DNA of 59,379 bases, filler included, from Porpidia crustulata (GCA_964255105.1; 5 parts of 5 records of this genome joined end to end with filler, not necessarily neighbours in it), one strand, 5' to 3'; counted from the whole stretch's first letter, positions 2,278-57,567 are shown. Notes: generated from the letters alone by a model not told the origin. Translations and numbers: made by a program.

Positions 2278-5200
2278 ATGGCGCTTAGACTAAGGTGTCT
2301 TTTGTCTCTTAGAAAGACAAAGCAAGACCCAATTAACCAGCATTCACCTTTGGTAAGTCGAGATTTGAGCCAGCTTCCTCGAGGCCAGCGAGTGAATTAA
2401 TTTTACATCAGGATGTCAAAAGTGGCGTGGTCGATCACATCAAGCGCAATGGTCAGCAAAAGATAACGGTCTACATCTCCTCAGTCAGCCCTCCGACGGA
2501 CTTGAGGACGCGATTCCTTTACGGTATCCGGTAGATCTCATCTTTGTACATGGGCTCAATGGCCACGTTTCACGCACATGGACACATCCAAACGGGACGT
2601 GCTGGCCTGAAGACCTACTTCCTGGAGAGCTGCCAGGTGCGCGTATTTACTCATATGGATACCCATCCAAAGTCTTCGCAAGCAAATCTGTTGCTGGCAT
2701 ACGCGATTTCACAGGGCACTTGTTGAACGATACAGAGGTTATCAATAAAGATTCACGCCCCATCATCTTCATCTGTCACAGCCTTGGCGGCATTGTGGCC
2801 AAACAAGCCATGATCATAGCTCATCACAACGATGAGCATAAAGCTGCTTGGTCTGCGACTAAAGCTATCATCTTCATGGGAACACCTCACGATGGAAGCT
2901 ACTACGCAGACTACGGCAAGGTGCTCGCTGACGTAGCCAACGTCGCGTCGCGTATATCTCTCACGCACCGCTTTACGGGTGGTGTGCGAACTCCGCTCAT
3001 AGAAAGCTTGAAGAGTCAAAGTGTAGAGTTGCGAGCAATAGCTGATGATTTTGTGGCCATAAGCCAAGGTTCTAATCTTCATGTCATCAACTTTTATGAA
3101 ACTGAAGCACAATCTTACACGAACAGGACTGTGAGCTACTACCTATTGAAGCCGGGCGCACAACTTTGTCCTCCAATGATTTCATTCTGACCATTCTCCA
3201 GATTGTAGATGCTAAGTTAGCGAAGTCGGGGGTACCTGGAGAAAGGTCTCTTCCGCTCTTTCTGAACCACCAAGAGTTCTGCCGATTCAGCGGTCCTCGT
3301 GATCCAAATTTCCACAAAGTTTTAGATCATATCAGAAGACAGATTCCTCCCGAGATTACTGAGTTGAGAACTATCAGTTCAAGTCTCAATTCGGATCATT
3401 GTAAGGAAAATACCACGCAACCTGTCCGTTCTGAGTATTTACAAGATCAGCATTTACCGAGACCGAAAAGCAATACGCATCACTGCTAAATACGCTCGAT
3501 ATCGCAGAATACGAAGCAAAGGTCGACACAAGAGTCGAGGGGACACTGGAGTGGGTCTTACGAAAACAGCAGTACACTGATTGGATATCGAGTGCGTGAA
3601 TAAGGTTGCTGTGGGTCATAGGATACGCTGGTACTGGAAAGACTGTCTTGTCATCGTTCGTCTCGCAGATCCTGCGCGGACGACAACCTAAGGCCTTGGT
3701 TTGCAGATTCTTTTGTGATGCTAAGATTGAAAGCTACCGTGATCCTTGTGCTATGCTGAGAAGTCTCATTTATCAGCTGGCCGACCAAAAGCGAAGACTT
3801 TGGAGTACGGTCAAGAGGGCATCAGATGCGGCTGGCTTCAATGTGTTTAATCAGTTTGACTCTCTTTGGAACCTCTTTGAACGACTCGCTTGTTCCGAGA
3901 CGAAGCGTATGGTGGCTATTATCATAGACTCATTCGACGAGTTCCAGCGCGAGACCCAGATTCGTATCTTTGAGCGCATTACGCGGCTCTTATCTTCAGA
4001 AGGTGGTGAGCGCGTGAAGTTCTTTATCACTTCTAGGCCGTTCGCAGAATACTCAACTCAACATCAACTCAATCCTTTACAGGTGGCTCGACTTGCCCAT
4101 TGGGAAAATCCAGAGGATACCAAGAATGATATTAGATGTCTCATCCATTACCGACTCGAGGAATTGGTCAGAAGAGGCGTCTGCACACCAGTCATACGTG
4201 ATAAGTTGGAAGAACAGCTTGTCAAGAAAGCCGACCAAACGTTCTTATGGATCAAGGTTGTGTTACCTCTACTTGAAAAGCGACGACTGTTACTACCAGA
4301 GAGCATCGATAGTATTCTGAACCTCGTTCCTGGAGAGCTTGAGTCATTTTATAGGCACCTGCTGTCGTCTATACCTGAGGATGATCAAGATACGGCAGCC
4401 GCTGTTGCGGTTGCTTGTTGTGTGTGACAGACCTCTCATGGGAGATGAGATCGGAATATTCATGACAATCAAACCCAACTATAAATCAGCCGCTTTGCTT
4501 CAAAGCGAGCTTCTGGTTGGGCATGACTCTGTACAGACTTTGCTCGGGCCATCGGTGCGAATTCATGAGCCACAGGTTGAGCTTGTCCATGGATCACTCA
4601 AGGAGTATCTAGTGTCGCTTTCGAAGACAAGTCAAGATGCATTGGCAGCAAAGTTTGCCGTCGATCCAACGCGTGACATTCGGGATATCCTTGAAAAATG
4701 CTGGATGTATCTATCTCTTGAAGAGTTCCAGATTGACGTTCATGCTTCGCTCAGGTCCGCTGACGGTAGCCAAAGCTCATGGAGAGAGGATTCACCCACG
4801 GAAGAAACAAATAGCCAGCCACCCTCGGTCTACAGCCTCAATCTTTTCAATCAGCCTATCTTCGAGGAGGGCACAATTGCTGATGAGTCTGCATGGCTTG
4901 CTGTAAGCGACAGATATCAAGCTTTCGATTTTGTAGCCTTACATTGGACATCGATGTTCAGATTATGCGAAGCTATTGCGACCGAAGAAGACATTGACAG
5001 GGCAATCTCACTATGCAAGACGGACACGCCCGTGTTCAGTAACTGGTTCCATTATTATTGGCTTAAGAAAATGCCTTTTGAAGATTTACCTGCAAGAATT
5101 GACATTCTCACAGTCACCTCTTTCTTAGGACATCGAAGAAGCCTAGAACGTTTAATTGGTAGTCCTACAAATTTTGACTCACAGACGATATCTAGCGCTC

Positions 5201-6393
5201 TTTTCTAGGCAGCACAGCAGAATCATGATGCATGCTTTGTCGCGCTTCTCAAAAGTTCGGGATGTGACCCGCAGAACTCGGGAAACGGAGACCAAATACC
5301 TCTATTGACTGCATCACGATTTGGACGTCTGGACTGCGTCAGACTTCTCCTAGAAGATGATCGCGTTGATATCAATGCTCAGGATCGCGTTGGGCGATCA
5401 GCTTTATATCTAGCTACAGCCAATAATCACCTTGAAGTGGTGAAAAGGTTGTTAGCTCATGAAGATGTAGATGTCAATCTCCCAAGCCGAGCCCTCAACA
5501 CTCCTTTGCACGTAGCCATTGGTACTGCCGCCGAACCAATACTTACAACATTCTTGGCTGACCAACGTACCGATGCTTATACACTTGACAAACGGGGACG
5601 CAGCATCCTCTCTTGGGCAGCTGAACTTGGGTACAAAGAATGCGTATCGATAATTCTGAGACTCGCGCCAACTGTAGTTGAACTAGAGGACCTTAAAGGT
5701 CGCACACCGCTCTCCTATGCTGCACAGCACGGCCACTTGCCCATCGTCCGCATGCTCATTAATAATGGCCACGCTGACCCACTAGCAAAAGATACATCCG
5801 GCCGCAACATCCATTCCTGGGCCGCATCGCAACGTAACACTGGAGTCCTACATTATCTCCTAAAGAAGTTCCCCTCAGGCGTAGACATCCCCGACAATGA
5901 TGGCTGGGCCCCTATTGCATGGACGTTCGATACCCCCGGCTACACCAAAAACTTTCACCTGCTCCTCCGCAGTGGTCACGTGAACACGAACCAAAGAGAC
6001 GGTGTCTTTGGTCGCTCACTCCTTTCTTGGATTGCCAGCTATGCCTATCTGGAGATGGCCGAGGAAATAATAGAATTTCCTGATGCCGATCTTGAGTCGA
6101 GGGATCTGAACGGTCGTACGCCGCTTTCAGATGCTGCCGCCAGTGGCAGTGCAAAGATCGTCCAAATGCTGCTTGCTACTGGGAAAGTCAATGTGAATTC
6201 CAGGGATAATCACGGGCAGACACCGCTAATGTGGGCTGCTAAAGAGGGACACGCTGATGTTGTCAAGTTGCTCCTTGCGTGTCAGGATGTGAAAACGGAC
6301 ATCCGCAGCGCTTCTGGCGAGATGGCTGTTGATATAGCGTGGAATTTGGGACATAATGAGATTATAGCTGATTTCAAGGAGAGCAGACGATGA
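2278..6393 (+). pseudogene. Fungal NLR: SesB-like alpha/beta hydrolase - NACHT - ankyrin repeats, disrupted
   Basis: VDLIFVHGLNG...FICHSLGGIV lipase-like domain (about 2525-3130), Walker A GYAGTGKT (about 3620), Walker B IIIDSFDE, and about 10 ankyrin repeats (5200-6390). Lesions: apparent frameshift near 2460, TGA at 3597-3599, frameshift near 4400, TAG at 5206-5208. The start at 2278 is inferred from a GTAAGT...CAG intron at 2353-2411. Confidence 0.85.
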
Positions 6394-11799: not shown

Positions 11800-11899
11800 N
11801 NNNNNNNNNNNNNNNNNNNNNNNNNNNNNNNNNNNNNNNNNNNTTAATTAATTAANNNNNNNNNNNNNNNNNNNNNNNNNNNNNNNNNNNNNNNNNNNN
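11800..11899. other. Artificial contig-joining linker
   Basis: N-run, TTAATTAATTAA (stops in all six frames), N-run; 100 nt. Confidence 0.95.
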
Positions 11900-23698: not shown

Positions 23699-23798
23699 NN
23701 NNNNNNNNNNNNNNNNNNNNNNNNNNNNNNNNNNNNNNNNNNTTAATTAATTAANNNNNNNNNNNNNNNNNNNNNNNNNNNNNNNNNNNNNNNNNNNN
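23699..23798. other. Artificial contig-joining linker
   Basis: N-run, TTAATTAATTAA, N-run. Confidence 0.95.
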
Positions 23799-35593: not shown

Positions 35594-35693
35594 NNNNNNN
35601 NNNNNNNNNNNNNNNNNNNNNNNNNNNNNNNNNNNNNTTAATTAATTAANNNNNNNNNNNNNNNNNNNNNNNNNNNNNNNNNNNNNNNNNNNN
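35594..35693. other. Artificial contig-joining linker
   Basis: N-run, TTAATTAATTAA, N-run. Confidence 0.95.
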
Positions 35694-36112
35694 TAATAAG
35701 TGATGAGTGATTTATTCTAAAAAATTGAAAATCAAACTCGATTAAACGTTATAATTCGAATGTTATAATCTGACTCCTTTAGGAAAATGCTAGACAACCA
35801 GATGACCGCTTGTACACAGTACGCCCTGCTTGGTCAGATTGTCCAATGGGGTGCCCGGTTTGACGAAGAGTCATCGACGACTGGGCAAATACTGTACCTG
35901 CTGCCTCCTTTTTAGTACCTCATGCATAAGCTCTACCGGGGGGGCTTATCTCGCCTCGTTCCCCGAAACGGCCCCCACACCTCCCACCATCATGGAGGGG
36001 CTGTGTCCAAGGTTGCCTACCTTCAGTTCAAAGGTAGCACTGCCAGGCAAACTTCAGCTAGGACCTTGACAGTGTAATTGATGATGTCTCTCTCCTTCGC
36101 AGTCTGAACAAT

Positions 36113-38809
36113 TTGACCTGGCCGGACCTAGGCATTCAATACAGGCATCATGTCCCCAAAGTCTCCTGCACAGTTGGCCAAGTCAAACGAGAGCAACGAC
36201 CAGACAAGCGCTCTGGACAGATATGGCATCACAGGGTCGAAAGCTACGGCAGGTGTCCGAAGACTTGCCCTCCGGCAATGAAATTAGTATTCGACTTGGT
36301 ATACAAAAGTCAATTCATGCAAATTTCACGATTCGCGGCGCCTCTAAACGAAGATGGTAGCAATAGTCCTTATGACACCAGATCGGGACAAGACTACGAC
36401 ATGTTACTCAAGAAGCGAGCGGAGGACATATCGTCGATATGCAACGATCCTGATTTGGTGGAGGCCCCGGAAGCGACTTGGGTGAGGATTATGTTACCGA
36501 GAGTCTTCTTGCTGTTCGATCGTAAGGCAGAAGAAAGACTGGACAGGGACCGTCCGTTTCATCACTGGTATGCCGCCACGATGTCGTTGAGATATATGCT
36601 TATGGCGAAGAAGTCTTGCTTGTCGGCGTCACTTTCGACCTGGAAGACGACCAATAATCAATTATGATCAAACTGCAAGGACTCGAACAGAGGCTCTTGC
36701 CACACGACCCGAGTTCGAGTTATGGTGAATCATTGTATTCATGCTTGGTCCCATGGATCTAATGGTCGAGCTTCCACAGTGAAACTAACGACCATTTTAA
36801 TCTTCCCAACTTCGCTCTAAGCGAACAGCTAAAATTTCACAAACAAGGTGTTCCTGACATTACGGTCGGTCTTGGCACGTACAATCTTGAACGCGAGCCA
36901 TGGTGCAGTCCGGAAAGGGAAGATGTTGTTCAAAACGACAGAGTCAGACTGTTTGACAAGGACGCACTAGTCCAGAATCTGGCTCCTTTAGGGCTTACAG
37001 GACCGAACACGAAGAATAAGACTCACTTTGTTTCCACCGCTTATCCATCGTTCAGCTTTGGCTTATAGGAAGCGAAGAAAGCTACAGGTGACACCCATGA
37101 CAAGGCTTTCCTACAAACCGCTGCCAAGGTACAGACACTACTTCAGTGGCAGCGTCGTGCGTTCCATGAAGTAAGGTTGTTTAAAGAATCACAATGCAAA
37201 GACGTCTGCCCTTTAGTCTGGTTTTTTTCCAGCGTTGGATCAGACTGGCAGCTGTGGGGCTGTTTCGAAGAAACACCTCCAGGTTGTAAAAACAATCAAT
37301 ACGTATGTCTCGTGGGTTCTCTCGCACGCAATGCTGACCATCTCACAGCCTATGGTATTGTTGTGGACTGGTAAAATCACAGACAAGCACAGGGCATTCC
37401 AACTCCTTTATATCATCGATATCATTCGCTTTTGGGCGGAGTGTACTTATAAACCTATCATCTGCACATGTCTACGCCGACTAGAAGAGCTCAGACTACG
37501 GACAGATCCAGCGCCTCTGGTTGATACCATTTGGGATTCTCAAATAACAATGAATGAAGTCAATACACCGTGGCTCTTTTACCGACGTAACGCAGATGAA
37601 GCGGCCTTCAACGATGCAGGGACTGCGAGCACGGGGACCACTTTGGATGGGCATTTATCACCCCCATCCTCAAAGACTCAACGCCCCTCTATTCGTCAGA
37701 GTAGAAGTCCATCACGGAAACCTCCCAATACGAAAAGCTCGAATGGCCAAGCAACAAAGAACTCCGTCACTGTTATTGCTGCAAGCGAGGAATATAACTG
37801 GCTACTTGATCGAACTATTTGCGCAAATGACCACGTGATGATCCGAATCGATAGGCAAGGTCGCATGTTACGACCTTTCATTCTCTTCGATGACACGAAG
37901 TGGCAAATTGAAAACACACAAGATTCAAAGTGTAAGATGATTCTCGAACAAGAGAGGCTCAGATATCAACCGAATGTTCGAACCGGGTTCATATGCGACA
38001 CGCAGTCGCGCAAGTATCTCTGGTCCTGCGCCCGCAGCACTCTCAATTACACATACGAAGGTACCCAATTCTGTGCCATAGCTCCCTTGAACAAGATGGC
38101 GTACGGCAAGCAGCCAGTCAAGAATGTAGAAGAACAGCTGTTCGAGCCAATCGAGGCATTACTTCATGTCGGAATACTCCTTGCAAGTTTTGAGGAGGTG
38201 ACCAAACAATGGTGTAAATGTCAACGGCTTGTGAATGGATATGAGGCAGGAATGATTCACTGCGGGAACACTCGATGCCATCTTCAATGGTATCATAAGG
38301 AATGCGTCGATCTTGACGAGGATGACGAACCGAAACCATGGATATGTCCAGATTGTCGCAAGATGACTTGGAACGAGCGAAGAGAGGTGAAACAACTGAA
38401 GTTATCCGAATGGTATGCGGAAGATATCGAAGCGAGCGACCAACGTGTACAGAGTACTAGAGCCCTTCGTCGTGTCTGGGATACGCATACTTGGCCGAGT
38501 AGGAAGGCAGTCCTTGAAACGTTCGAAAGAGTCCTTTACAATCTTGATATCATCGAGAGCTCCAGGTATACAATACGTTCGCAAGGGATCGTATCGTCGC
38601 TGAGCGCACCACGATACTGGGTGCTGAAAAAAGACGACCCGAAAGTGGTGATCAGGGCTGGGCCACGTGAGCGTCAGATTGTCGAACACGAGCAGATCGA
38701 TTCCAGTGACGACGAAGATAGCTCCGAAGGTCTCGATAATCACACGCCAGATTCTACGAATGACGGCATCGATGATATCGATGACGAGTTCCAAAATCTT
38801 CACGTATGA
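36113..38809 (+). pseudogene. PD-(D/E)XK-like nuclease domain plus ING-type PHD finger protein, with premature stops
   Basis: Frame 1 reads GVPDITVGL...YPSFSFGL*EAKK...LVWFFSSVGSDWQLWGC; intron about 37302-37348; then LLWTGKIT...QLLYIIDIIRFWA. PHD WCKC...MIHCGNTRCHLQWYHKECV...WICPDC at 38210-38357. Stops TAA 36760 and TAG 37066. The 5' exon structure is uncertain. Confidence 0.7.
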
Positions 38810-39124
38810 GAGACTTTGCCGCCTTCGTGGCCATGACAGTCGGGCTGTGACTGAACCGAATCGAATTCAGCACGATATATTTTGGAAGGTGCCCATCGCC
38901 GTATACTAGAAGCGGACCTTCGAATTCTGCCGTTCCATTGTCCATGCATTAGCTAGATCACGGAGAAACGAACAAGATCATAACAGCGTCCACACTTTCC
39001 GGTTGAAACGATTTATGATAGCGGCTTCCCCTTCCCTCTCAACAGCAACACCACAGAATCACTCTTCAGATGATCCTCCTCTTCTGCTTTGCAAGCCTCC
39101 GGCACGATCACTAACCTATTCCCT

Positions 39125-39733
39125 ACCGTGGTCGAAATACTAGGCTACTCCTCCATGTTCTTCCTCCTCTCGACAGTCTCATTTTACGTTCTCGTTGTCT
39201 GACATCATTCCTAAACTCCTGGCGCGCGGACCGCATCAGCCAGCGCTACTTACACATCACGATTCCTTTGTACTACTCCGTGATCGCGTATATCATCGCC
39301 ACTACCACGACGGCTGTTGGGCCTAGGTATTTTGCTATGAGACTTATGCCCGTGGGAGTGTGTACGGGGTATGTGAATGCTTTGATGTGGATTAGTACTA
39401 CGCTGTCAAGGCCGCCGGCGAAGGTAAGGTCTCCTCTCTTTCCCGTCCTTTCCTTCCTCCTGTGTCATTCTCTCCCTTTTTCCCTTCGATTTCCCCTTTC
39501 CCTTTTCTTCCCCAAGCAATGTTCACCTAAGCTAACATCCTTCAGCGCGCCGCAGTTCTCACTCTCATAAACGCCGTCTTCAACAGTAGCTCAATCTACG
39601 CATCCTACACGTACCTCGAATCAGTACAACTGCGCTTCATTGTCGTCATGAGCGTGAGTTGCGCCACTCCCTTCATCGACATACTGTCTGCTACGATATT
39701 GAAGTTTGTGCTGAGAAGAATGAATGAGAATTG
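39125..39733 (+). pseudogene. MFS transporter (allantoate/Dal5-like) C-terminal fragment
   Basis: IAYIIATTTTAVGPRYFAM...WISTTLSRPPAK|RAAVLTLINAVFNSSSIYASY; intron about 39424-39545; stops upstream and no N-terminal half. Confidence 0.7.
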
Positions 39734-42777: not shown

Positions 42778-42951
42778 GATGTGGTGGATGGAGTATTGAA
42801 TGAAGAACTGGGGGGAGTAGTGGATGGAGTAGTAGATGGAGCACTAGATGGAGCACTGGATGAAGCATTCGGCGAAGCACTAGGTGAAGCACTGAAAGCA
42901 TGAAGCACTAAACGAAGCATTGAACGAAGGACTAAATGAAGCATTAAATGA
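42778..42951. repeat. Degenerate 12-bp minisatellite, about 14 copies
   Basis: Units such as GGAGTAGTAGAT, GGAGCACTAGAT, GAAGCACTAGGT, GAAGCATTAAAT. Confidence 0.7.
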
Positions 42952-43042
42952 GTCATCAAATAACAGCGCCGTCCAACCCTCTCTCTTCCTTTAAACAATG
43001 TCTCTTTCTTACAGCAACCAAGGTTGCGTGCACTAATTCGCC

Positions 43043-44522
43043 ATGGATCCTACAGACGACGCTCATATTAATGACCTGCTGGCTCGCCGTACTGTCCAAG
43101 ACTACGGAACATTCAGGTACGTGCTAACTCACCATCGACAGTTACAGTGGATCACGCCAACGTCTTTCTATCAAAAAGCATCGTCAAAGTTCCAGGCTTG
43201 TCGAGCCCGTCAGAATCACAACGAGTTGCGGTTCTCGCCAGATTAGAGTATGAGTTCAGAGATCCTCCCAGATTGCCTAAGAGTCAAGCTAATGCGGCGA
43301 TTACTTTCGCACTGGAAAGACAAGAGCAGAGCACACCTCCTCTGGATGTTGATGCCCTTCAGTCGAAGCTGTTGTCGGTACCCATACTCCATGTACTCCT
43401 TCGTTCCGCTAACATAACATAACATAGAAGTCTATCTAGGCAATCTCCCGCTCTGACACCACCTCCTGATGACGAGGCAGAGAAAGAGGGGTCTCGCTTG
43501 CTAGAAAGCCAGGCTCGCAAGGATCTGGAAGATGAAGGCTGTTCTCCTTGCAAGACCTCTCCGAAAATTGTCAGAAATCGCTCCCCGGAACAATAGATGG
43601 CGTCCTCTGCGCTCAGCTATCGGACTGGAAAAGATTTCGTAAACTCTAAGGAAAAAATCGACTACACTATCTACAGCACAAATCTCTCAGTGACTTTGAA
43701 GATATGATCCGTGAACGCCGACGAAGACCTAACTTGGAAGGGGACGTGAATTTACAGTCTGAATCATCAAAACAGAGTCGGTTGGAAAATTGGATTGAGT
43801 TTCAAGACTATCATCTTCAGCGTCATGAGACACTTGAGAAGAAACTCGATGATCTGAGAATAACGTCGATCGAGACTTCGAACAAACTCAAAAACGCAAA
43901 CGCCGCAGACTTTGAACGTGCAGCACTAGATGCAAGAATCTGCGAGGAAAAACCAAAGTCTGCCGAACAGCGACTGAAACAGCACGAGATCCTGCTGCGG
44001 TGGATTGAGTAGGAACGTATAGTAATGAGTGTTGAGTACGCGACATCTGCCGAAGAATGTCACGACAACTAGGACGACGCAACTAAAGCCGTTCGAGGGG
44101 TCTTTGCTTCTAATCGTCGAAAGAGACAATCGAAAGCTCCCTCGGTTCTCAGCACAGCTGGGTCAAGAATCTCAAAGCCCGAGTCCCGGAAAAGAAATGT
44201 ACAGCGCCAGAAGCTCAAGGTACAAGAAGCTGATCCTGTCATCGTGGACTTGGGCGTCCCAAAAAGTAGCATTTCACGGATACCGGACGGCGGATTAAAC
44301 AAGACTCCTCGTACGTCTCAAGAAGAGACTTCTCCACTCACAAAGGGTTTCCAAGACAAAGAATCCGCTATTGCCAAAGTAAGATCATCGTCAACGACCC
44401 CACTTCATGAGACTGAGCAATAACGATCTTCAGACAGAGCACGACTCAAGTATCAACAGGGTCAGCAAAGGCCACAGTCTGCGCCTTTGATTGTCAAGAC
44501 ACTTAGTGGAAGGGAGTCATGA
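43043..44522 (+). pseudogene. Degenerate hypothetical fungal gene with a coiled-coil region
   Basis: Fragments QLSDWKRFR, IRERRRR..LEGDV.L, SRLENWIEFQDYHL and LLRWIE, followed by a basic low-complexity tail, broken by many stops and frameshifts. Confidence 0.55.
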
Positions 44523-47488: not shown

Positions 47489-47588
47489 NNNNNNNNNNNN
47501 NNNNNNNNNNNNNNNNNNNNNNNNNNNNNNNNTTAATTAATTAANNNNNNNNNNNNNNNNNNNNNNNNNNNNNNNNNNNNNNNNNNNN
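47489..47588. other. Artificial contig-joining linker
   Basis: N-run, TTAATTAATTAA, N-run. Confidence 0.95.
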
Positions 47589-52540: not shown

Positions 52541-52941
52541 CAGCTCCCCGACGAAGCCGACGGTTGTGCTAGTAGAGTACATTGGGGCAACCAATAATCG
52601 AGGTGGGCCTCGCAGGGATGCGAATCCTACATGATTTTTGCCTCGTCATAAGTCTTGCTCAGCCCACCACTACATAGTATGTGCGAATCGTTTCTCTACT
52701 TCTGAGCGCCGAGGCGTCTGCCGAATAATCCCTCTCAACGGATGTTCCAGCCTCAGATGAAAGAACAAGGGAGCAGACGGCGACGGTCTTGTCCATACTC
52801 AAGCATGCGCTCTCTGTGACTGCCAGGCCTAGGTTGAGCCTGTCAACTGCCTTCACTGTATACCATTCCGATTTCTGAGATACGATCAATTCAATCCTGT
52901 TCACCACTTTGTGAGCTCCTTGAACGCTGTTTCATTCGAAA

Positions 52942-55900
52942 ATGGAACACTATTACCAAGACTACACGGTGGGCTGGATCTGTGCACTAGAGGTGGAATA
53001 CTTGGCCGCCTTGGAGATGCTGGATGAAGAGCACGACGGACTTACAACCAAGTTTCCCAACGACGGTAACGCTTACACACTTGGCCGTATCAGTAATCAT
53101 AATATTGTTGTTGTGTGTCTGCCTAAGGGGCAATATGGGCTCGTCCCGGTAGCGACAGCAGCAGCCAACATGTTGAATACCTTTGAGGCGATTCGTATAG
53201 GACCTATGGTTGGTACCGGGGGTGGGGCACCAAGTGCTGCGCATGATATAAGATTGGGGGACGTTATTGTCGGAACGCCTGCGGGTCGACTGGGTGGTGT
53301 TGTCCAATATCACCGTGGCAAAATGATCCAGGACCAGGAATTCATCCCTACAGGACATTTGAATGCGCCTCCTACTATGCTTCTGACGTCGGTGACGAGG
53401 CTCAGTGCGCAACATACAAGAAAAGGAAATCGAATTGCAGAGATTGTTTCCAGTATGATTGAGAGTAACGAGAAGTTGAGAAAAACATATGAGCGCCCGC
53501 AAGGAGATCGATTGTACGAGGAATCGTACATTCACTCAGGGGACCAACCTTGCACGACAAGCTGCAGTCAATCCGAACCGCCTCTTATGCAACGAAGCAT
53601 TCGCGATTTAGACGGGGACGAATCAGTTATTCACTTTGGAACCATTGCATCAGCCGACACACTGATGAAGAATGCAAGATTTCGGAATAAGCTAGCTGCA
53701 GAGTATGGCGTCTTATGTTTCGAGACGGAGGCTGCGGGACTAATGAATGATTTCCCCTGCCTCGTCATACGAGGAATTTGCAACTACTCTGACACGCATA
53801 AGAACGACGTGTGGCAAGGCTATGGAGCAGCGGCAGCTGCTGCTTATGCAAAACAACTGTTACAGAGCATACCCGCCAATGATCTACAGGCAGCTCGCAG
53901 GGCAAAAGATGAGATGAAAAGTACGGGTAGGTTTGCCAACGATTTTCCTGCCTACGACAGACACCAGCCCGAACATCGGCTAGCAAAGACTATTGTCTTT
54001 CGAGGTGCAGATACCCCATTTGCAGAAGTGATCTGACACCGAAATCCCCACATAGTTAAAGAAACCCTAGAACTAGCGCTTGTGAACCATAGTCGAATCG
54101 AATATATTTCTCAGATCTTTCAAGAGGAAAACGAAAAGAATATTGGACAATCGCTCTCGCCCCTGGAGCGTTGATCACGACAAAGCTTGGTATTACAATA
54201 ATTTTTCCCGACCAAGCAGCCGCTACTTGAATCCGATGAGTTCAAATATTGGTCAAGAGGCGAGCCTTGGCAGCTACGATTATATGGATCTGCGGGAGTA
54301 GGCAAGGTAGTAAGAGTTTATTCTTGAAATGTGCTGTTTAACACACATCAGGCTGTGGCTAATACTTTTAGCAGACTGTATTATCCGCTGTCGTGGTTGA
54401 CCATTTGCGGCACTCGTTCAACGGTCAGTATTAAATCCCAGCTTACCTGTTTCCACAAGACTCGCGACATTCCACTGCGGATACTCTTACACCACGAAAT
54501 CCAGCTGGCAGCCTATTGAAGCCGCTCATTCAAAAAAACGCAACCGACATCATGTCCGAGAACATCAGATGGATATACGAAGCGAAAGAGAAAGGGGAGG
54601 AACCTGACGTGGGTCTCTTGTGTAACATTTTGAAACCAGAAACAACCAGCTTCAAGAGAGTTTATCTTATAAATAGATGGGCTGGATGAGTATCCACAAG
54701 ATTTGCAAGCTTGGCTAGTCCCTGATCTCATGAGTTTTAATGCCAAGAGCTTGAGTATCATGGCTTTCTCAAGGGAATATGAAGTTGACCGAGTTATGGA
54801 TATTCGGTGTGATATCTGTAAAATTCGAAATTGAAACGTATACTTCCGGTGTAAGGTTTGCGAAGATTTCGAAAATTGTCGTAGTTGCGCGGAACAAGGA
54901 AAGCGTTGCGAGAAGGTCTATGAACTTCGACAGCCTAGCAAGACCTATTACAGGGTTGAGATATCAGAGGAAGATATTGAACAGTACATTAGACAAGAGC
55001 TTCGAGAAAAATCGGAGCATAGCAAAGCCCTGCACTTAGATACGCGCATATATTCGGAATCTCCTGATTCGTCAACGTTTAGCCAGATGATCCGGAAGAA
55101 TCCTAAGCTTGTGGATCGCATTCCCACTGTCATTGCTAATAAAACCCATGGTAATGTCAGATTCGCAAAGGATTACATGCAATCGCTCAAGTTAGTGGAT
55201 AATGAATACGCAATAGGGGAGGCACTGGAAAACCTACCAGATAAACTATATGATCATTACATGCTCGAGCTAGAACGACTCAAAACAAAGAGAACTAGAA
55301 GACACGGCTATGTTGGCGTCAAGATTCTATCTCTCGTGGCTCTTGCAAACCGTCAGCTTCGCTTCGCAGAACTGCAACACGCTTTAGTCATGATTCGTGA
55401 ACCAGAATGTACCAAGTTCCATGACCTCATAGTAACTAGCAGAAGAGATGTACTAGCCGAGACACATCAACTCCTTACCGTTGACACCGATGCAATTGCG
55501 GGTTTGGATTTCTCTGACCCGGTCTTCCGGATGTGTTTCTAAGACTACCAGGATACATATCCAGAAGAGGTGGTGATGCAAGCCCAATTCGCGCAAGCAT
55601 GCTTGACGTATCTGAGCTTTCATCCCCTGTCGCAACCTTGTGAAACACTCCAGAGCTTTGCCGAGAGGCAGAATGAACACGCATTCGTTGCATATGCGTC
55701 GCAATGTTGGGGTGACCATGTCCGCCAAGTTTCCAATCCTGGTATTGACACGATGGCCTTATACTTCCTCCGAAATCCTAACAATGTTGCAGCATGTGCT
55801 CAGGCCGCTTGGCTGACCAGTACACCAGGCAATATCGATTGTTCTGATCATCGGAGCGCGAGTGCTCTACAATTACCCGCTTGGTTCAATATATCTTCTA

Positions 55901-57567
55901 TCATCCCGAGGGTCTACGATGAAATTTTGGGCGCCGACACTCGTGAGCTAATACACCAAAAAACGCCATTGATGTTTGCTTGCAAAAGAGGCCATATGGA
56001 TGCTGTGCGTCAACTGCTCAACATTGGCGCATCACCAAACGCATCTAGTTCCCAAGGAACGACTCCAATGTTCGAAGCTGTTGCAGGCAATCATGTAGAG
56101 GTTGTGGGAATTCTTTTGAACGAGGCCAAGCTTCAGATCAACGCTACAAATCCGAAAAAATTGGCCGCACCGCTCTGATGATCGCCGTTAGGCTGGGCAA
56201 GCTTGATATCACTCGAAAGTTGCTAAGCGTTACAGGTATCGATGTCAATAAACAAGATATTGATGGGCATGCAGCACTATCCATTGCCGCGGCCAACGGT
56301 TACGACGAGATTGTCCAGACTCTACTAGAGAAGGAGGGCATAAAAGTCAACCTTACCACCCATGTTGCTCGTTATTCTGCGTTGGCATTCGCAGCTCTGA
56401 ACATCACAAATGACAGTTCAACGATTCGATCTCTGCTCGCCCACGGTGCGGATCCCAATATCCGAGATAACAACCGTGGTGGTACCGCTATCTCCAATGC
56501 TATCAAGAGTGGGTTTACCTCGGCAGTCGAGGCACTGTTAGAACACGATATCGAACTACAAGCTGTAGACAATGATGGACAAGGTCTACTTCATTATGCG
56601 AGTGCGGTAGGAAATGCCCGTCTCATACATGTCTTGAACGGATTAGGCCTACCGCTCAATTGTAAAGACAAAACTGGCTCCACACCGTTGCACGAAGCAA
56701 GTCGGCACGGCAAGATCGAAGCTGCTAAGGCTTTACTTGAATTAGGGGCATAATGTTATCTCAAAGATAGTAGAAGATGTCTAGCGATGAACATTGCTTG
56801 GCAGTATGGGGAGGTGGAGATTATGAACCTACTAGCGTTTGAAATCCTCAATGAGCAAAGGCAGACCAATATGATCAAAACTAGCGAGGAGCGACCGATC
56901 TGGGCCCTTAAAAAAGCTGGGAAGTGGTCTTCGATCAAGGACGCGATAGCAGTGGGTAAGACTGATCTTGCGCAAAGAGAATTGAGGACGGACATGAACG
57001 CGTTGCACTTCGCGGCGCTTCTCGAGTCTGCCGAGACTTTGAACTCCCTCCTCCAAAACGGAACCATATCACCCAACGACACTGATCAGCTTCAACGCAC
57101 TCCACTACACCTGGCAGCCATCAAGGGCAACGTTGATGTCACTAAGATGCTTTTAAAGCAAGTTGATGTTGACTCTAATCGCATGGGGGGACACCCCTTT
57201 GTCACTTGCTTTATCTTTCAAGCGTTACCAAGTGGCCGTTCTCCTGATAGAATCGCACGCGAACATGAATCTGTCGAATGTGGACCAAAATCTCCAAGAC
57301 TTGTTCTTCATGGCGGCCAAGCTTGGTAAAGCCGCTACAGTACGAGCCCTAATCGACAGAGGAGCAGATGTATTGGGCCGAAATGAATATGGAGAGATGG
57401 TATACGATATTGCGAAGACGAGGAATGATCACGAGACGATACAGGTTCTACAGGCTTCCTATGTGTTCTTACGTGACGCGAGCTATAGAGGTAAAGGAAC
57501 AAAACGCCGGCGTGATGGCAGCGTCAGCGATGTCCCACCGACGCTCCGCAGGCACACGGAGGACTAA
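52942..57567 (+). pseudogene. Fungal NLR: PNP_UDP nucleoside phosphorylase - NACHT (with ZZ-like insert) - ankyrin repeats, disrupted
   Basis: YTVGWICAL, DIRLGDVIVG, CFETEAAGL, IRGICNYSDTHKN; Walker A LYGSAGVGK|T about 54280-54306; Walker B IDGLDE about 54673; ankyrin repeats 55950-57450. Stops at 54832, 55540 and 56751; frameshifts near 54670, 56170 and 57180. Confidence 0.88.

Follow-up and report, generated by a model that had tools for sequence, protein, structure and literature searches.

A broken copy of a conserved and apparently undescribed ascomycete gene family in Porpidia crustulata, with a predicted PD-(D/E)XK-type domain and an ING-type PHD finger in one chain

The window analysed here, 59,379 nucleotides of Porpidia crustulata DNA (GCA_964255105.1), consists of five separate contigs of a fragmented 22.9-Mb assembly, joined by 100-base N-TTAATTAATTAA-N linkers at 11800-11899, 23699-23798, 35594-35693 and 47489-47588. 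The contigs are unrelated, and gene order across the linkers therefore means nothing. The gene of interest lies on an 11,795-base contig (window 35694-47488) that ends approximately 460 bases upstream of it. Comparison with homologues revealed a four-exon gene on the plus strand at approximately 36151-38809, with an exon-intron map derived from tblastn with the relatives P0157, P0030, P0032 and P0004; all features below are on the same strand. On other contigs, positions 2396-6393 and 52924-57329 hold what we take to be NLR-like genes, with translation judged by eye and presumably with a hydrolase-like or PNP-like N-terminus, a NACHT-like P-loop and ankyrin repeats.

Exon 1 (36151-36567), whose start codon we place by inference at 36151, aligns to all four relatives and encodes the N-terminal helical region of a nuclease-like domain, including a C.D...E..W helix (E at 36470), a motif kept in all seven homologue sequences that cover the region. 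Intron 1 (36568-36613; 46 nt, GTATGC...AAG, phase 2) separates it from exon 2 (36614-36724), which is 62% identical to P0157 over 24 residues. The H.CxxC of the exon 2 motif H.CxxC...C is also found in P0157, P0030 and P0032, and the motif is likely to be part of a predicted zinc-binding insert that is completed by a His from exon 3. Intron 2 (36725-36779) has 55 nt and the form GTGAAT...CTAAT...CAG. P0157 runs across the position of intron 1, and a metagenome locus (L005) has both introns, the donor of intron 2 included, at the same codon and phase as the Porpidia gene. Exon 3 (36780-37302) carries the catalytic motifs and matches a Xylographa protein at E 4e-30; the motifs that had been quoted from sequence alone were found where they had been read, with PDITVGL at 36853, a TAG at 37066-37068 directly before EAKK (37069) and LVWFF at 37213. 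The ExK residues occupy 37069-37077, and the Q that follows is at 37114.

Intron 3 (37303-37348) is a 46-nt GT-AG intron, GTATGT...CTGAC...CAG, with CTGAC as branch site, and the unspliced homologues P0158-P0161, P0017 and P0031 diverge at the Y-V junction that marks it. Its removal joins exon 3 in frame to the open frame 37349-38809, which bears out the splicing of the nuclease-like exon to the PHD finger and acidic tail that the earlier note had proposed. Two other parts of that reading had to be revised: the start lies approximately 690 bases further upstream, with two extra introns (those at 36568-36613 and 36725-36779), and just one of the several in-frame stops remains after splicing.

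The first part of exon 4 (37349-37590) encodes the last strand and the C-terminal helices of the nuclease-like domain (LW.G, QLL..ID.I..W...YKP), and aligns to the end of PF20516 (P0157 residues 292-379, E 0.0075) and to the PDDEXK_12 copies of the same genome. It is followed by a variable, Ser/Pro/Arg-rich linker (37591-37774), in which 5-12 of approximately 55 residues are identical to distant homologues, compared with 40-46 of 80 in the preceding helices. The remainder consists of an unclassified middle domain in two parts, the N-terminal at 37775-38209 (WLLDR, QFCAI.PL and LFEP.E motifs, kept in the family) and the C-terminal at 38357-38670 (R.QR.RAL..VW..H.WP and RYWVL motifs), with an ING-type Cys4-His-Cys3 PHD finger inserted between them (38210-38356). 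An acidic tail and the stop codon complete the gene (38671-38809), with D or E at 16 of the last 41 residues. Since exon 4 encodes the PHD finger as well as the last strand and helices of the nuclease-like domain, finger and domain cannot belong to separate genes. The inventory of a nuclease-like domain and a PHD finger was thus confirmed, and the approximately 250 conserved residues around the finger had been overlooked.

Judged by its sequence, the window copy is dead, with two lesions in a gene that is otherwise barely decayed. The first lesion is the premature TAG at 37066-37068, which takes the place of a Trp that is invariant in the 13 homologue sequences; full-length relatives without the stop are found in Xylographa soralifera and Clohesyomyces aquaticus. 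The earlier note was right in calling the copy inactivated on account of this TAG, but missed the second lesion, a frameshift within 36231-36262. There, 53 bases separate L..(Y/L)GI (36213) from CP..LF.L (36266), two conserved motifs that stand in different frames here, whereas in five homologues the spacing is 16-20 whole codons, and no intron candidate was found within the interval.

Several other explanations of the damage were considered. The TAG at 37066 was rejected as a splice acceptor: none of the four GT sites 39-126 bases upstream has a branch site or is strong, and every choice among them would delete the conserved strand before ExK. A TAA at 36760, a candidate second lesion, was rejected because it falls inside intron 2. 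RIP is not supported as the cause of decay, with TpA/ApT at 0.63 in the gene and 0.67 in the contig, (CpA+TpG)/(ApC+GpT) at 1.14 and 1.18, respectively, and symmetric differences to the relatives in run X2 (A>G 79, T>C 65, G>A 69, C>T 62). A contig of run X1 matches 35734-39400 without any difference, the stop at 37066 included, but because X1 may be the source data this identity is not an independent check against assembly error; relatives in runs X2 and X3 also have sequence across the stop. The same run yielded two short contigs at window 37511-37839 (depth 2, approximately 85% identity) from a related organism or allele. The window copy retains 46 of 47 strongly conserved exon 4 columns and its closest relative in the last exon is 79% identical; therefore, the loss of the gene looks recent. 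As this copy is a pseudogene, interest in it rests on the family.

We regard the locus as a disabled member of a conserved ascomycete gene family that has apparently not been described. A search with the last exon among 1.84 billion representatives gave 224 matches at E <= 0.001, of which 67 reach 1e-10 and 33 reach 1e-30, the weaker matches being ordinary ING-like fingers. Together with the match of exon 3 to Xylographa, the 33 strongest speak against a chance reading of the sequence. Further word-indexed protein searches were insensitive, with 1, 2 and 7 matches. Full-length members come from X. soralifera (P0157, 841 aa), X. carneopallida (P0155), C. aquaticus (P0030, 741 aa) and Bacidia gigantensis (P0032, KAG8527384.1, 844 aa), and a C-terminal piece from Puttea exsequens, so that the named hosts cover two fungal classes, Lecanoromycetes and Dothideomycetes. 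Few named fungal proteomes were among the 30 clusters looked up. In metagenome contigs, one of 268 stretches was confirmed and was too short for context; in viral contigs, none of 70 pattern matches was confirmed.

Both domains do occur on one chain, as the earlier note had supposed: the catalytic WEAK motif and the PHD finger stand together in five (P0017, P0030, P0031, P0155 and P0157) of the 86 family sequences, and in P0017 and P0031 one unspliced frame runs across intron 3 and contains both domains. Sufficiently long chains that start in the nuclease helices have the finger in 17 of 20 cases, a count that includes the window's own exon and in which P0011 and P0155 are one gene. The PHD-less relatives P0032, P0051 and P0057 retain both flanks of the middle domain, and therefore the finger is an insert; the existence of such members also means that it is not essential to the family. 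An N-terminal SAP domain (E 5.8e-6) in P0032 is the sole other fusion partner seen, and this DNA-binding domain also points to nuclear DNA. With its degenerate PHD finger and its SAP domain, P0032 presents a swap of chromatin- or DNA-binding modules while the nuclease-like and middle domains stay the same. In P0027, an unrelated N-terminus precedes the middle domain and PHD finger, and P0006 lacks one zinc ligand.

A helix Glu, a PD, an ExK and a following Gln are the four residues typical of the PD-(D/E)XK superfamily. In this family, they stand in that order and are conserved wherever they are covered, in 7/7, 12/12, 13/13 and 12/12 homologue sequences, respectively, some of these rows being pieces of one gene; the conservation that the earlier note's reading of PD and ExK called for is present. 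The N-terminal domain very probably has a restriction-endonuclease-type fold. By ESM Atlas features, residues 60-380 of P0030 score 0.95 to a PDDEXK_12 cluster (198/256 shared), the ten best family matches all agree, and by Atlas structure the TM is 0.57-0.67 to DUF7924, PDDEXK_12 and unnamed ascomycete clusters, from a model whose overall confidence is low (mean pLDDT 0.44); the two Atlas searches count as one source. Trimmed hhalign comparisons with the genome's own DUF7924 and PDDEXK_12 profiles scored 28.8 and 28.2, versus maxima of 19.1 and 17.2 in 30 column shuffles for each profile, and the addition of two bridging paralogues raised this to 39.6 (probability 76%). Untrimmed comparisons were weaker, at E 0.077 and 0.0057.

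Other searches gave less. A single family HMM scored 8 DUF7924 and 3 PDDEXK_12 paralogues no better than reversed controls (best E 0.42 versus 0.53), and no solved nuclease was matched by sequence up to E 10. The 27-bit Pfam cut-offs were not reached, the best scores being 16.4 bits for PF20516, PDDEXK_12 (P0157, E 0.0075), and 14.1 bits for PF25545, DUF7924 (P0158, E 0.037), and the locus was absent from the 4 PDDEXK_12 and 22 DUF7924 matches of the genome searches. The fold that the earlier note had read into the motifs is favoured by the Atlas and by profile comparison. The domain would work like PDDEXK_12 and DUF7924, with which it shares the order of E-helix, (P/V)D, ExK, Q, two strands and a long helix ending in W...Y.P, but by Pfam cut-off it is a member of neither, and the present family adds the Cys/His insert, the linker, the unclassified domain and the PHD finger. 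The same sub-threshold scores and negative HMM test, together with the unrelated N-terminus of P0027, could be taken to mean that the domain is not a nuclease fold at all, or that two adjacent genes have been mis-annotated as one. We find this hardly credible, given the unspliced single frames of P0017 and P0031, the exon shared by the last helices of the domain and the finger, and the Atlas neighbours and above-shuffle profile scores.

Besides the 22 DUF7924 and 4 PDDEXK_12 matches, the genome has two nearer paralogues of the nuclease-like domain, L002 (G000:C2083) and L003 (G000:C368). They have the form PD.L.G ... EAK ... QT.FPI, fall below every Pfam cut-off and gave no PHD match; next to PDDEXK_12 and DUF7924 they make up another fungal subfamily, the third, for which there is apparently no Pfam model.

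The middle domain had no match in Pfam, PDB sequences, PADLOC, PHROGs, NCBIfam or the Atlas, a blank that shows neither novelty nor absence. PADLOC and NCBIfam gave 0 matches for 8 proteins, PHROGs gave nothing under E 0.18, and the Atlas gave no feature match and a best TM of 0.30. The domain may be a new fold.

All eight Cys4-His-Cys3 zinc ligands are present in the PHD finger of the window copy, and among the family fingers the sixth Cys is kept in 46/49 and the last W-C-C in 48/49. The window copy scores 19.3 with Pfam PHD, below the 24-bit cut-off (E 0.0011). When the family profile was compared with solved structures, the first 20 places all went to ING1-5, Yng1, Yng2, Png2 and Pho23 fingers (best E 1.8e-12, to ING1), and the ING-type assignment made at first reading stands. 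The accessible text on ING3 describes H3K4me3 binding via Tyr-8, Ser-15, Met-19 and Trp-31, and an Arg2 pocket of Asp-23 and Trp-47 (PMC5000080). The corresponding cage positions of the window copy are W (38210), M (38252) and W (38288). Across the family, an aromatic residue occupies the Tyr-8 place in 46 of 49 fingers, Met is present in 42 and both are present in 39, in fingers that were found by a pattern of which the Trp-31 place is part, so that its conservation is not independently counted. Because the cage residues are conserved, the finger is a predicted methyl-H3K4 reader.

The family fingers resemble ING fingers (ING1-5, Yng1, Yng2, Pho23, Png2) in the Cys4-His-Cys3 spacing, in CDN..C...W.H, in the aromatic/Met/Trp cage and in the last Trp. 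They differ in having Trp rather than Tyr at the first cage position (43/49), a first loop that is longer and in many cases has an additional aromatic residue (28/49), and a variable Asp-23, the Arg2-binding residue, which is kept in 28/49 and is Gly in the window copy (38264) and its clade. Moreover, they come without the ING coiled coil, a Pfam domain that had no match in any full-length member. Ser or Thr is found at or beside the Ser-15 place in 32/49. In a quick tree, for which 43 of 86 family and 60 of 73 other sequences passed the pattern, the family fingers cluster apart from the 60 other ING-like fingers with a weak support of 63, and the family label needs 2 changes versus 33 in shuffles; such clustering fits a single capture of the finger but does not show one. 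In the histone H3 gene of this genome, codon 9 is followed by an intron.

The nuclease might be active with the finger as a regulatory or accessory module that does not decide the cutting site, serving instead as an allosteric switch, as a sensor of self and non-self, or as a binder of unmodified H3 or of a non-histone partner. We consider this unlikely. It would suit a finger that is inserted within another domain and lost in 3 of 20 chains, whose Asp-23 equivalent varies and whose Met is replaced by Trp in 4 of 49, as it would the lack of a PHD match in L002 and L003; however, sequences that are 30-45% identical still keep the cage residues, and the finger persists in 17 of the 20 chains.

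The surroundings of the gene have been searched for signs of mobility. On the 11.8-kb contig we found neither terminal repeats nor other mobile-element hallmarks, a Starship captain included, and nothing that ties the gene to a Starship or another mobile element. In the assembly, the PHD-bearing type occurs once and the DNA upstream of it is likewise unique; on the contig it is accompanied by an ankyrin gene, a decayed frame, HRI1 and a lipase-like gene. The decayed frame (42970-44500) is broken by several stops and is probably a second decayed gene; a degenerate 12-base tandem repeat of approximately 14 units lies at 42781-42953. DUF3435, the Starship captain family, has 14 matches in the genome, on 6 other contigs, and several of the DUF7924, PDDEXK_12 and DUF3435 matches contain stops. 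The main texts of two Starship papers mention neither a PHD finger nor a nuclease. A transposase-like or cargo gene of a mobile element, with the PHD finger picking insertion or cutting sites, is a very improbable reading. The captain matches elsewhere, the nearby contig end, past which a larger element could extend, and the second decayed frame would agree with it, as would the transposon links described for CR-type REase domains in the part of the source available (PMC5289972); a single copy with unique upstream DNA, three spliceosomal introns, no terminal repeats and such neighbours does not.

No description of the fusion was found in our literature search, in line with the earlier note, which did not recognise it as characterised; the 2016 survey of eukaryotic REase effectors (Zhang et al.), whose supplements could list it, was outside that search, and PF20516 returned no papers. 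A further fungal likeness, compared by description, is to the Spok proteins of Podospora. In the available portions of two papers, these are single-chain proteins whose killing depends on a predicted PD-(D/E)XK domain, with a cysteine cluster and a second domain after it, and they show that in a fungus the part of a protein that kills and damages DNA can be a PD-(D/E)XK domain (PMC6660238, PMC9972908). The same portions give Spok a kinase-like resistance domain and name no PHD finger, and the C-terminal half of our family had no kinase match in Pfam, PDB sequences or the Atlas. CR-REase domains, of the Crinkler/RHS type, are likewise described, in the accessible part of the source, as eukaryotic REase-superfamily domains with variable partners that are proposed to act on DNA in conflicts (PMC5289972); in contrast to these, no CRN header, NTPase or kinase domain was detected in the family.

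We suggest, tentatively and at somewhat less than even confidence, that the intact product is an H3K4me-tethered endonuclease belonging to a fast-evolving pool of accessory genes. The protein would dock on H3K4-methylated nucleosomes via its own ING-type PHD finger, and the predicted metal-dependent PD-(D/E)XK domain would then nick or cut DNA near active genes; more weakly, we infer that the middle domain would restrain or position the nuclease. Membership of a conflict-type gene pool, as a Spok-like toxin or a genome-policing factor, is again a weaker suggestion, made because fast divergence, module loss and pseudogenisation suit such a gene. The family is single copy here, diverges rapidly, has lost the finger in 3 of 20 chains and shares this genome with a large number of related nuclease-like genes. 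A more specific version, in which intact members are single-chain H3K4me3-guided endonucleases that break active-promoter DNA as a killer or drive element, with a self-protective middle domain, seems to us possible but doubtful.

The gene could also encode a domesticated chromatin protein, neither toxic nor selfish, whose nuclease-like domain serves repair, recombination or silencing by binding or processing RNA, or DNA that is branched or damaged. A single copy per genome here, conserved intron positions and retention across two fungal classes would be expected of such a gene, and PHD-guided cleavage does have host functions in RAG2 and Spp1/Spo11, according to the part of the source available (PMC3674044). 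However, the gene is dispensable in this strain, with its two lesions, it diverges fast, relatives show losses, as in the zinc ligand missing from P0006, and few named fungal proteomes appear among the clusters. We therefore think domestication quite unlikely, and return to the H3K4me-tethered endonuclease.

If that reading is correct, its functional parallels include RAG2 and Spp1, in each of which, as the accessible text has it, a PHD finger reading H3K4me3 ties a DNA-cutting enzyme to active chromatin (PMC3674044). The family resembles RAG1/RAG2 and Spp1-Mer2-Spo11 in that its PHD finger is predicted to link a nuclease to H3K4me chromatin, and differs from them in that reader and nuclease are separate proteins there, whereas here they are conserved on one chain with a restriction-endonuclease-type domain. 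The nucleases of RAG1 and Spo11 are of other folds, the DDE and the topoisomerase VI type, respectively. In the more specific version, as a killer or drive element, a nuclease of the restriction-enzyme type would have captured an ING reader, and the family would provide a natural example of a nuclease programmed by a histone mark, comparable with RAG1/RAG2 targeting but in a single protein and on another fold. A conserved one-chain arrangement would also offer a direct way into the fungal PD-(D/E)XK-like genes, many of them uncharacterised, of which this genome alone has more than 25 matches, by suggesting a substrate, chromatin DNA, and a rule for targeting, and it may provide a compact tool for mark-directed chromatin cleavage.
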